Shown here piece by piece: positions 48,001 to 51,000 of a stretch of DNA of 64,000 nucleotides. This stretch comes from Minisyncoccota bacterium (GTDB lineage: Bacteria > Patescibacteriota > Minisyncoccia > Phycocordibacterales > GWA1-40-21), in contig JBAZRH010000002.1 of the NCBI GenBank assembly GCA_041663045.1, forward strand, positions 115,699-179,698, given 5' to 3'. Position numbers: made by a program. How positions within the stretch are numbered: the stretch's first letter is position 1; every line of letters begins with the position of its first letter.

Positions 48001-51000
48001 TTGAGCGAGAACTTAGTTGTAGAAGGGCAAACAGTATCACAAGGGCAATACATAGGACTTACAGGAAATACTGGCAAATCCACCGGTCCTCATATTCACT
48101 TTGAAATCAGAGGGGCGAAGAATCCTTTTTAAATAAAATACAAAAATGGCGGCCGCGAAGCGGCCGCCATTTTTGTATTTTATTTAATTTCCTTCACAAT
48201 CTCCAAAAAGTTTTTAGGTTTCAAGCTATCCCTCCCTATCAAAAGACCATCTACTTTTCCTTCATCTACAAGTTTTTTCGCATTACTCTTTCCAACAGAT
48301 CCTCCGTAAAGCACCAATATTTTTTCTGCCTCATCGCGACCAAAGATATCACTCAATGTCTTTCTTATAAAAATAGTCATCTCATTCAATTTCTCAGGAT
48401 TGATAGCTTCGTCTTCCAGCTTACCTATTGCCCAAATCGGTTCATACGCTATTATTATCTTATTCGCAGATTTTTTGGGAATACCATCTAACATAGAATG
48501 TAACTGTTTTTTAATTTCGTGATAGTAATCTCCATGTTCATTTCTGTCCTTCTCTCCAATACAGAGTATTCCTTTTAGCCCTTTTCTTATAACACCTGAG
48601 AGTTTTTTAGCTATCATTTCTTCTGTCTCACCTTCCGCTTTTCTCTCTGAATGGCCAAGGATGATATATCTTACGCCGAGTTCTTGGAGCATATTGATGC
48701 CTACCTCCCCAGTATGAGAATTTCCTTTGCCTATAAATACATCTTGCGCACCAAGTAAAACATTTTCATCCACGATAGCTTTTTTAACGAGATTTATAAA
48801 GACAAAAGGAGGACAAATTACGACATTGGTTTTCTTTTCTTTCTTCAATCCTTTTTTTATTTTTGTCAGTGCGTTTTTTGCTTCTACTTCTGTATCTGGA
48901 TTCATCTTCCAGTTGGCTACTATTAATTTTGTTTTGGCCATAGTGACAATAGTATATCATTTTGTGATATAATTGTGCTAACATGGATAACAAAATTATT
49001 TGGCACGCCCTTGAATACAAAAGGAAAGAAAAGACAGCCGATTGGTATTGGGCTGTCGGTATAATCTCGGTCTGTATTGCGGGAATTGCTATATTTTTGC
49101 ACGACACGCTTTTTGCCGTATTCATTATACTTGCTGTTATAACTTTAATAATGTTTTCTCGTCGCGAACCGAAAGTTATGGAAGTAGAATTGAATGATAG
49201 AGGTTTGAAAGTAGACAAAGAACACTATCATTATATCTCTCTTGAATCTTTCTGGGTTGATAACACCGATGAAAAGGAGCCAAAGATAATTCTAAGATCA
49301 AAGAAGACGATATCACCACTTATTGTTATTCCGATAGAAGAATATAATCATGAGGATGTCAGAAACTTTTTACTCGAAAAGCTTTCCGAGAAAGAAATGC
49401 ATGAGCCCCTTTCTCAGAAAGTGATGGAAAAATTGGGATTCTAGAAGGTGGCTTTTTAGCTATTAAGATGATAAATTAATGCCGACAGTATTCTCTGTCG
49501 GCATTATAAATGCTCTCATAGTTCAATGGATAGAACGTGACTTTGCGGAAGTTAAAATGTAGGTTCGATTCCTACTGGGAGCACAAATTTAGATGACGCC
49601 ATAAGCGTCTTTTAAATTTGTGCTCCCAAGCAAGCAAACTGCTTTGCTTGCGGGTAGGAATCGAACAGCGGAACTATGTTTTTTCAGCAGAAAAAACTAG
49701 TGAGCTGGTGCCCAGACTTTTTCGAGCGACGGCGAGAAAAAAGTCGAGGGAGATAAGCGAAGCGGTCCTACTGGGAGCACAAATTTAGATGACGCCATAA
49801 GCGTCTTTTAAATTTGTGCTCCCAAGCAAGCAAACTGCTTTGCTTGCGGGTAGGAATCGAACAGCGGAACTATGTTTTTTCAGCAGAAAAAACTAGTGAG
49901 CTGGTGCCCAGACTTTTTCGAGCGACGGCGAGAAAAAAGTCGAGGGAGATAAGCGAAGCGGTCCTACTGGGAGCACAAATTGTCTTCGATTTTGATATAA
50001 TCTACAGATGAGAAAAATACATATTGTAGTAGTAGTTTTTATCCTAATTATTATTGGGATGTATTTATATATTAACTATTTTCAATACAATACATCACGT
50101 CGATTAATATTCTCTGAAACAGGCAATTCCTTATCCACAATGATCAACCAAATTGAAGAAGGAAGTTCTCAGACAAAAACAAACGGTGTCTTCTCAAGTA
50201 CTAGCACGATTAATAACCAGTCGGCACAACTAATAGATAATAATCAAAATAATAAAGAATCGATGGTTATTTTACTTGTTGAGAAAGACCTAGCCGACCC
50301 ACTTAAATCAGAGCTGGATGTTTATAGCCAAGACATTTTAAAAGAATATAATTTTCACACAATCATAAAATTAGTTCAGCAAACAGATGACATACTTACA
50401 TTACAGAAATATGTTTTAGATACCTACAAAAGTGGTGACCTCAGCGGTATTCTTATTGTAGGTAATGTACCTACGGGTCTTTTGTATCACCCAGATATTA
50501 TAGATACTAATTCGGTTTTTAATAGTCAGGGTTTAATATTGAGCGATTCAGTATACCAAGATATTTTGGGTGCCTGTATCTATTCTCCTGATAAAAAAGC
50601 TTTCTCCTACAAAGATCCACGTTGCCAGACCGGTAATACTATTCCTCCATATTGGATTGGTCGTTTAACTCCAAACTCATCAACAGAGGATTCTCTGACT
50701 CTACTTAAGGAATATTTTAGACGAAATCACGATTATCGAACTGGCGAATTTTCATATCAGAAAAAAGTCTTAATCTATACACCAATTTTCTCTGATTCCA
50801 AGCCATCAGAGAAGCAAGGTGACATAGCCTCTATAAAAGATTTCTCTATGTTTAATGAATATAGTTCAGATCAAATAAATTATATAGATTCTTGGGACAC
50901 AAACTCAGATCAGACGTATCTGAGCGAATTACACAAGCCACATCAGTATGAATTTGTATTCTTTAACGGACACGGGGCACCAACGTTCCACCAAAAGAAT

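Follow-up and report, generated by a model that had tools for sequence, protein, structure and literature searches.

Why does the 3' end of a tRNA gene recur, each time in company with the same hairpins, directly behind the tRNA-Arg(GCG) gene of a Minisyncoccota bacterium? The array lies in a stretch of 64,000 nucleotides (contig JBAZRH010000002.1, positions 115,699 to 179,698 of the forward strand), called the window throughout. The tandem duplication is in itself ordinary, and what is duplicated is an undescribed conserved module that flanks tRNA genes. We tentatively read the array as two copies of a non-autonomous insertion module that has no genes, targets the 3' ends of tRNA genes and acts as folded DNA, a reading that we place somewhat short of probable. 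The genomes of Paceibacteria, where relatives of the module are found, are tiny and streamlined, so a conserved and structured module without genes behind their tRNA genes needs explaining. No description of such a module was found in the literature searched, and a paper on group I introns in the tRNA genes of Patescibacteria (PMC13011429) contains nothing like it.

An initial annotation, made from the sequence alone, described a 196-bp unit in 2.1 perfect tandem copies behind the tRNA, which is borne out by Tandem Repeats Finder (49570-49981, period 196, 2.1 copies, 100% matches, no indels, score 824). Each unit consists of a core copy, D, and a remainder, X, and the array is composed of the following parts.

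49512-49584, plus strand: tRNA-Arg(GCG) gene, called by ARAGORN and by Rfam (tRNA, 66.1 bits); CCA is not encoded.
49570-49589, plus strand: D1, the first core copy, TCCTACTGGGAGCACAAATT, an exact 20-mer comprising the 3' T-stem, the 3' acceptor strand, A73, C and 5 further nt.
49766-49785, plus strand: D2, the second core copy, an exact 20-mer.
49962-49981, plus strand: D3, the third core copy and right boundary of the array, with unique flank from 49982.
49570-49765, plus strand: unit 1 of the 196-bp module (D + X), delimited by Tandem Repeats Finder and collinear with single-copy modules of the related loci L075, L083, L090 and L095 (L numbers denote the fetched loci and contigs).
49766-49961, plus strand: unit 2, delimited likewise and 100% identical to unit 1.

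The last 15 nt of the tRNA gene (49570-49584) form the first part of D1. The window contains exactly three occurrences of the 20-nt core TCCTACTGGGAGCACAAATT (at 49570, 49766 and 49962), against none expected in shuffled sequences; no further copy is found in the 64-kb window with up to 3 mismatches allowed, and no fourth D follows the 553-aa gene that lies beyond the array. As the two units are 100% identical, the duplication in the window is probably recent, and among the sampled loci two identical units are seen in the window only. The Logan assembly of run SRR18595301, which is independent, gives a contig (L001) that begins at window position 49952, exactly 30 nt (k-1, with k=31) before the first unique base past the third core. 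Because the contig breaks exactly at k-1, the junction of unit end, core and unit start is present in the reads, which is evidence for two or more units in tandem, or for a unit in circular form, with the exact number not fixed at two.

Within each unit, X carries an antisense copy of the tRNA end, I, which is the reverse complement of tRNA positions ~54-74 and is divided into I_acc and I_T. The coordinates below are those of unit 1, followed by those of unit 2.

49576-49628, no strand assigned: long D/I hairpin, an inverted repeat of 24 nt with arms 49576-49599 and 49605-49628, 92% complementary; unit 2 at 49772-49824.
49595-49619, plus strand: terminator-like apical hairpin GACGC-cataa-GCGTC followed by TTTT, found by a terminator scan; unit 2 at 49791-49815.
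49620-49628, plus strand: I_acc, GTGCTCCCA, the reverse complement of the tRNA 3' acceptor strand, A73 and C; unit 2 at 49816-49824.
49630-49651, no strand assigned: P2 hairpin, GCAAGCAAA-ctgc-TTTGCTTGC, 9 bp; unit 2 at 49826-49847.
49654-49666, plus strand: I_T, GTAGGAATCGAAC, the perfect reverse complement of the tRNA T-loop and 3' T-stem (49563-49575); unit 2 at 49850-49862.
49678-49697, no strand assigned: Pa hairpin, GTTTTTTC-agca-GAAAAAAC, from the consensus fold of type-A modules; unit 2 at 49874-49893.
49711-49750, no strand assigned: Pb hairpin, composed of CCC-A-GAC, an AT stem, a GAGCGACGGCGAG loop and GTC-GA-GGG; unit 2 at 49907-49946.
49742-49765, plus strand: conserved 3' motif AGTCGAGGGAGATAAGCGAAGCGG, directly 5' of the next D; unit 2 at 49938-49961.

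The inverted T-arm copy that the initial annotation had reported in each unit is thus confirmed, and the hairpins, including the terminator-like GC hairpin, are stronger than it had described. The unit folds far better than its shuffles, with z = -9.1 and -8.4 on the two strands. Across 21 sequences the pairing of the D/I hairpin is kept with compensatory changes, and all relatives have a GC hairpin and T-run at the position of the apical hairpin. Seven of the nine pairs of I_acc are compensated across relatives. P2, which stands exactly at the acceptor/T-stem junction of the antisense tRNA copy, also has 7/9 pairs compensated, and every pair compensated in A4, as is every pair of the hairpin P4. 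The Pb stem is compensated among the type-A members (TTTTTC/GAAAAA, AAAGC/GCTTT, AAATCC/GGATTT), and the motif AGTCGAGGGAGATAAGCGAAGCGG is common to L070, L075, L078, L088 and L095.

Is this structure a private feature of one genome? The 153-aa gene located before the tRNA served as the anchor: fetching the loci of its homologues yielded 80 loci with tRNA-Arg(GCG), of which about 64 could be evaluated. A module of 130-290 bp follows the tRNA directly in about one third of the evaluable, distinct loci, amounting to 22 distinct modules with the I_T core. Their parts come in the order D1, GC hairpin with T-run, I_acc, P2, I_T, two to four more conserved hairpins, a 3' motif that differs by subtype, and D2. 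In nine loci D2 is a copy, 15-20 nt long, of that genome's own tRNA 3' end, and it is usually followed by an intrinsic terminator common with the convergent rpsT gene. The right ends of the modules are distinguished as follows.

Type A, the subtype of the window, 3' motif: GGTGCCCAGAC-hairpin-AGTCGAGGGAGATAAG...
Type B, 3' motif: GTACTG-[NNNN TGTAA NNNN]-CGATA.
Type C, 3' motif: ...GTGACCACAA.
Right end of the module: P4 or AGTCGAGGGAGAT, then D.

Over its full length the window unit is collinear with the type-A modules found in L075, L083, L090 and L095. Such end-to-end agreement marks these modules as copies of one element rather than scars of independent deletions. Modules of hosts in which the flanking proteins share 52-59% identity match the interior of the window module with 84-90% identity. 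Serial, non-identical modules are found in L104, L111, L113, L118 and L121. The search of related genomes that had been proposed for the unit therefore recovers collinear homologues; of the suggestion of a satellite or private remnant, the head-to-tail arrangement stands, whereas the unit is not private, since single-copy homologues are conserved in many genomes. The exact 53-nt hairpin, searched in one genome per species, gives no match.

Covariation is evidence for a selected fold. When the T-loop, 3' T-stem and 3' acceptor strand are paired with I_T and I_acc, and P2 is included, 94.3% of the cells are paired over 21 distinct sequences. Compensatory change is seen in 19/30 pairs, against a mean of 10 in shuffles, none of 500 of which reaches 19, and against 4-7 in slid controls. 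Private T-loop variants are mirrored in I, as in L070 (TCCGATT / AATCGGA) and L103 (TTCAATT / AATTGAA). The conserved helices contain 553 Watson-Crick, 9 G-T and 6 A-C pairs, which allows no call of the strand, and about 18 P4 hairpins, read by eye, have no G-T pair. Better folding of the plus strand in 19/22 modules was considered as strand evidence and rejected: shuffled sequences reproduce the asymmetry (-6.8 vs -7.0 kcal/mol), so it reflects base composition and the strand cannot be called. Judged from the sequences, this strand symmetry leans towards hairpins that would form at the DNA level.

A profile of I_acc, P2 and I_T run over the examined DNA matches only beside tRNA-Arg(GCG), with one exception in L137, where a type-B module follows tRNA-Ser(GCT) and its I_acc, I_T and D2 fit that tRNA. 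A scan of all other tRNAs adds modules after tRNA-Ser(TGA) in L113 and L114, with matching I and D2. D and I co-vary with each genome's own tRNA, the family being present at three or more tRNA species, and interiors of one subtype are common across tRNAs, the module at tRNA-Ser in L137 sharing its interior with that at tRNA-Arg in L094, and the module at tRNA-Ser in L114 with that at tRNA-Arg in L148. A simple target-site duplication was ruled out as a general rule because the D2 and D3 copies of L113 are foreign. L095 has a second tRNA-like copy with a chimeric T-arm. An "intron in the T-loop", prompted by L106, was likewise rejected; the junction fits a deletion through the CGATTG of the T-loop and the 5' strand of P3.

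Does the module come and go? Empty sites, consisting of the tRNA, a plain terminator and rpsT, are present in L029, L068, L076, L080, L086, L100, L136, L139 and L188, and aligned pairs of filled and empty relatives differ by exactly X and one D. The site is filled in L079 and empty in L080 at 88% flanking-protein identity, filled in L123 and empty in L029 at 83%, and holds two units in the window but none in its nearest relative, L068, at 84%. On the flanking-protein tree, filled sites, empty sites and module types are interspersed. Among loci of species-representative genomes anchored on triosephosphate isomerase, the tRNA stands beside that gene in 1/58 (L029), as an empty site. Relatives differ in the genes that occupy the interval from the tRNA to rpsT, a hot spot that holds, for example, the 553-aa gene in the window, PMT and GT2 genes, and an AbiEii toxin system after the left part of a module in L131. 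The initial annotation had taken the repeated tRNA 3' segment for an integration footprint, and this holds insofar as the repeats mark the boundaries of an insert with filled and empty sites; a random attachment (att) scar it is not.

These observations are consistent with an insertion module for which D would be an att-like recombination core. An incoming D would rebuild the tRNA and bring a terminator with it, and an enzyme encoded elsewhere may recognise the D/I palindrome and the other hairpins in their folded DNA form. Two routes could have produced the array in the window: unequal recombination between D copies of 20 nt, or a further insertion of the same module into the rebuilt tRNA end. 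If mobile, the module would be an unusually small tRNA-targeting element that holds both sense and antisense copies of its target, and it would point to an unidentified recombination enzyme.

Several points weigh against this reading. No recombinase, transposase, reverse transcriptase or TnpB is found in the 64-kb window (Pfam, all open reading frames of at least 150 aa), and no recombinase, transposase or reverse transcriptase gene stands next to any module in the flanks examined, so that mobility is something we infer rather than observe; the initial annotation had already remarked that the units have no room for an integrase gene. No module copy away from a tRNA is found in ~0.85 Mb of Patescibacteria DNA, and viral contigs give 0 matches to the core 20-mer and 0 to a 20-mer of P2. 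(The P4 pattern has 33 matches in viral contigs, every one with a non-complementary stem, and these were discarded as chance.) In L113, the downstream D2 and D3 differ in acceptor sequence from the resident tRNA. The conserved P2 splits I_acc from I_T, which makes it hard to see how I and D could become matched to a new tRNA. Long residence at several tRNAs, selection on pairing and gene conversion of the interior fit an RNA with a host function equally well. Finally, sampling through one neighbouring gene biases the view of the tRNA targets.

How does the module compare with known systems? It resembles att-type integration in that the insert is flanked by direct repeats of the tRNA 3' end, the tRNA at its left junction is intact (66 bits) and relatives have empty sites; a tyrosine or serine recombinase gene in or beside the element is missing. 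As with the attL and attR sites of tyrosine integrases and with cis-mobilizable elements (CIMEs), tRNA 3' end repeats bound the insert, the tRNA is rebuilt with an element-borne terminator, empty sites exist, elements are stacked serially at one tRNA and the cargo varies. Unlike these elements, the module is only 130-290 bp long and gene-less, holds an antisense tRNA copy of ~21 nt and co-varying hairpins, and serves several tRNAs with one module family, with no integrase found.

The module departs from miniature inverted-repeat transposable elements in each respect compared. The ends of the unit, AAATTTAGATG... and ...GCGAAGCGG, are non-complementary, all inverted repeats of the unit being internal (D/I, P2, Pa and Pb); the repeat is 15-20 nt long and always a tRNA end, instead of a duplication of 2-10 bp; and no dispersed copies are found within the window or the ~0.85 Mb of examined DNA. 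In keeping its structure with nearly all Watson-Crick pairs while the sequence varies, the module is like the attC sites of integrons and their gene-less cassettes, the subterminal hairpins of IS200/IS605 and the miniature elements derived from it (palindrome-associated transposable elements, PATEs), and it shares with attC cassettes and IS200/IS605 derivatives that they are small gene-less units able to form arrays. It differs from attC and IS200/IS605 in being bounded by tRNA-end copies of 15-20 nt, not by a GTTRRRY core or a TTAC-like tetranucleotide, and its ends have no similar hairpins; no integron integrase or TnpA/TnpB is found nearby. Compared with the IS200/IS605, TnpB and IscB systems, the end hairpins differ, a target duplication is present, and neither an OrfB or Y1 transposase nor an Rfam match is found. 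The likeness to attC is a general one, of folded, co-varying and gene-less units, and we claim membership neither for attC nor for IS200/IS605.

Among RNAs, ARAGORN calls one tRNA and no tmRNA in the window, and neither it nor Rfam indicates a tmRNA or another tRNA-like RNA. At gathering score Rfam 15 returns only the tRNA, and at E up to 10 it adds just weak chance matches of the microRNA hairpin type. Group I and group II introns, ribozymes, retrons, CRISPR-like arrays and casposons were also considered and set aside, as Pfam shows no reverse transcriptase or Cas1, Rfam gives no match, and terminal inverted repeats are absent. The module is like tmRNA, YrlA and mascRNA in that it may form a closing helix resembling the acceptor and T stems, with A73-C at the end; unlike them, it has no true T-loop or D-arm, and the mimic copies the neighbouring tRNA instead of having a fixed identity.

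The last resemblance leads to the alternative that survives best, possible but on balance unlikely, which is a structured host RNA linked to the tRNA. This RNA would be read through from the tRNA and span ~150 nt from I_acc to D2, with an I/D2 closing helix that copies the acceptor and T stems, P2 in the place of the D and anticodon arms, and P3 and P4 in an expanded T-loop. It could be excised by RNase P and RNase Z and then receive CCA, and the tandem in the window could be a plain gene duplication. Such an RNA would explain the compensatory changes in every helix, the conserved loops and junctions (GTACTG, TGTAA and GAGCGACGGCGAG), the position of P2 at the acceptor/T-stem junction, and the high conservation of the interior at deep host divergence. 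It would also account for D2 staying the same as D1 for 15-20 nt even where lineages differ in their acceptor sequence, and for the strong intrinsic terminator that normally follows the last D, as expected of a tRNA-like 3' end. However, nearly all members have the terminator-like hairpin and T-run between the tRNA and I, no promoter-like site is seen inside the unit, Rfam gives no match, and the pairs show no excess of G-U over A-C, while the folding advantage of the plus strand is that of shuffles. D2 is decayed or absent while I and the hairpins are kept in L070, L088, L094, L097, L120, L129 and L148, and in L113 I pairs with D1, not D2. Furthermore, the type, number and presence of modules vary among identical tRNA 3' halves and between relatives of 83-97%. 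If the module were an RNA, it would represent an undescribed tRNA-mimicking class. The array of tRNA-derived small RNAs suggested in the initial annotation is neither supported nor excluded: the terminator-like hairpin stands between the tRNA and the rest of each unit, and the base pairs, nearly all Watson-Crick, show no bias towards one strand.

Distinctly unlikely is the view that the modules are scars of integrase-encoding islands, in which arms of attP were joined after deletion of the interior, D represents attL and attR, and integration and decay were repeated. Direct repeats of a tRNA 3' end with a rebuilt tRNA are the classic signature of such islands, the hot spot has the varied cargo described above (the 553-aa gene, PMT with GT2, and AbiEii in L131), and L084, L095 and L106 have partial copies of tRNA-Arg, truncated at the 5' end, further downstream. 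Independent deletions, however, would not share internal junctions, whereas the type-A modules of five distant hosts are collinear and 84-90% identical, and no integrase is found in the window or the examined flanks. In addition, attP arms are not known to have compensated hairpins or to carry the tRNA end in antisense, which also counts against scars.

Very unlikely, in our view, is the most far-reaching possibility, a system in which base pairing directs insertion. Here, I (~21 nt) and D would guide the element to the two strands of the tRNA 3' end, and swaps of these segments would retarget the scaffold (Arg-GCG, Ser-TGA, Ser-GCT). The module resembles the exon- and intron-binding sites (EBS-IBS) of group II introns, the bridge RNA of IS110 and the omega-RNA of TnpB in combining a stretch complementary to its target, I, with a copy of that target in the sense direction, placed on the 3' side beside a structured scaffold. 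This is a resemblance only, as the module has no Rfam match to the RNAs of these elements and no cognate protein gene. The ~21-nt complementary stretch of the module, contiguous or split by P2, is also unlike the guides known from these elements. If guidance by base pairing were true, bacteria of the candidate phyla radiation (CPR) would possess a programmable mobile element of a new kind, specific for tRNA ends.

An assembly artefact or passive satellite, with the second unit absent or a meaningless local amplification, is hardly credible: the unit exceeds typical short reads at 196 bp, so that an assembler cannot count its copies, and in the array region breaks are found in three ENA assemblies of a 77% relative as well as in the Logan contigs, yet the break point of L001 requires the unit-to-unit junction in the reads, and a passive satellite would not be conserved as a single copy in many genomes.

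Independent short-read assemblies (the ends of L185, L186 and L187 and the end of L002) stop inside the tRNA or the D/I palindrome. As independent assemblies stop there, the modules routinely fragment Paceibacteria assemblies at tRNA genes, which is a practical cost of the module.

Other arrangements were observed at the same tRNA in relatives. In L068 (4064-4345, the same in L069), the place of the module is taken by a TTGACA-17-TATTAT promoter, a non-coding stretch of ~230 nt and a pair of terminator hairpins; this segment has no Rfam match at gathering score and could be a different small RNA gene. L122 (3150-3400) has another tandem repeat after tRNA-Arg(GCG), with two copies of ~125 bp, which is not homologous to the module. 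The truncated second copies of tRNA-Arg(GCG) directly follow the intact tRNA (L084:3658-3735, L095:1157-1270 and L106:958-1040); in them the anticodon arm, T-arm and 3' acceptor strand are preserved, but a matching 5' acceptor strand is missing, and they are called by neither ARAGORN nor Rfam. Seven relatives (L072, L073, L075, L078, L104, L105 and L107) have the tRNA-Arg, whether or not a module accompanies it, in inverted orientation to the 153-aa gene, so the segment has flipped at least once.

Directly upstream of the tRNA in the window, a perfect 12-bp hairpin, TAATGCCGACAG-tattct-CTGTCGGCATTA (49477-49506), is retained in L185 and L188, with compensatory changes. It ends 5 nt before the tRNA 5' end and is probably the terminator of the 153-aa gene. 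Directly after the array, at 50008-51669, lies the 553-aa gene, whose homologues are hypothetical proteins of Patescibacteria. Its designation as a clan CD peptidase in the initial annotation is not supported, as the protein has no Pfam match even at E 0.01, and Peptidase_C25 (with SLH) is found in just one distant homologue. The element TGATATAAT (49993-50001) ends 6 nt before the ATG of this gene, a position that suggests a leaderless mRNA. A 65% homologue of the 553-aa protein in L067 also has a module fragment directly upstream.

The window as a whole is chromosomal, encoding UvrD, an M23/LysM peptidase, triosephosphate isomerase, RuvABC, Fpg, a Mur ligase, dnaA-dnaN, a penicillin-binding protein and a TraG/VirB4-like cluster. 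Its triosephosphate isomerase has its closest counterparts in Candidatus Paceibacterota, the group to which the source's name for the 153-aa protein also refers. At 4070-6801 there is a sulfate-activation set composed of APS kinase, a CysN-like GTPase and a CysD/PAPS-reductase-family protein, which is unexpected in a reduced CPR genome; it adjoins a glycosyltransferase block (8443-14583) and may serve sulfated surface glycans. The dnaN and dnaA genes lie on the minus strand at 22009-25000, placing the replication origin probably near 24.7-26.4 kb. The minus-strand genes at 27714-39055, without Pfam matches around a TraG/VirB4-like ATPase (30493-32319), likely encode a type IV secretion or DNA-uptake-like apparatus.

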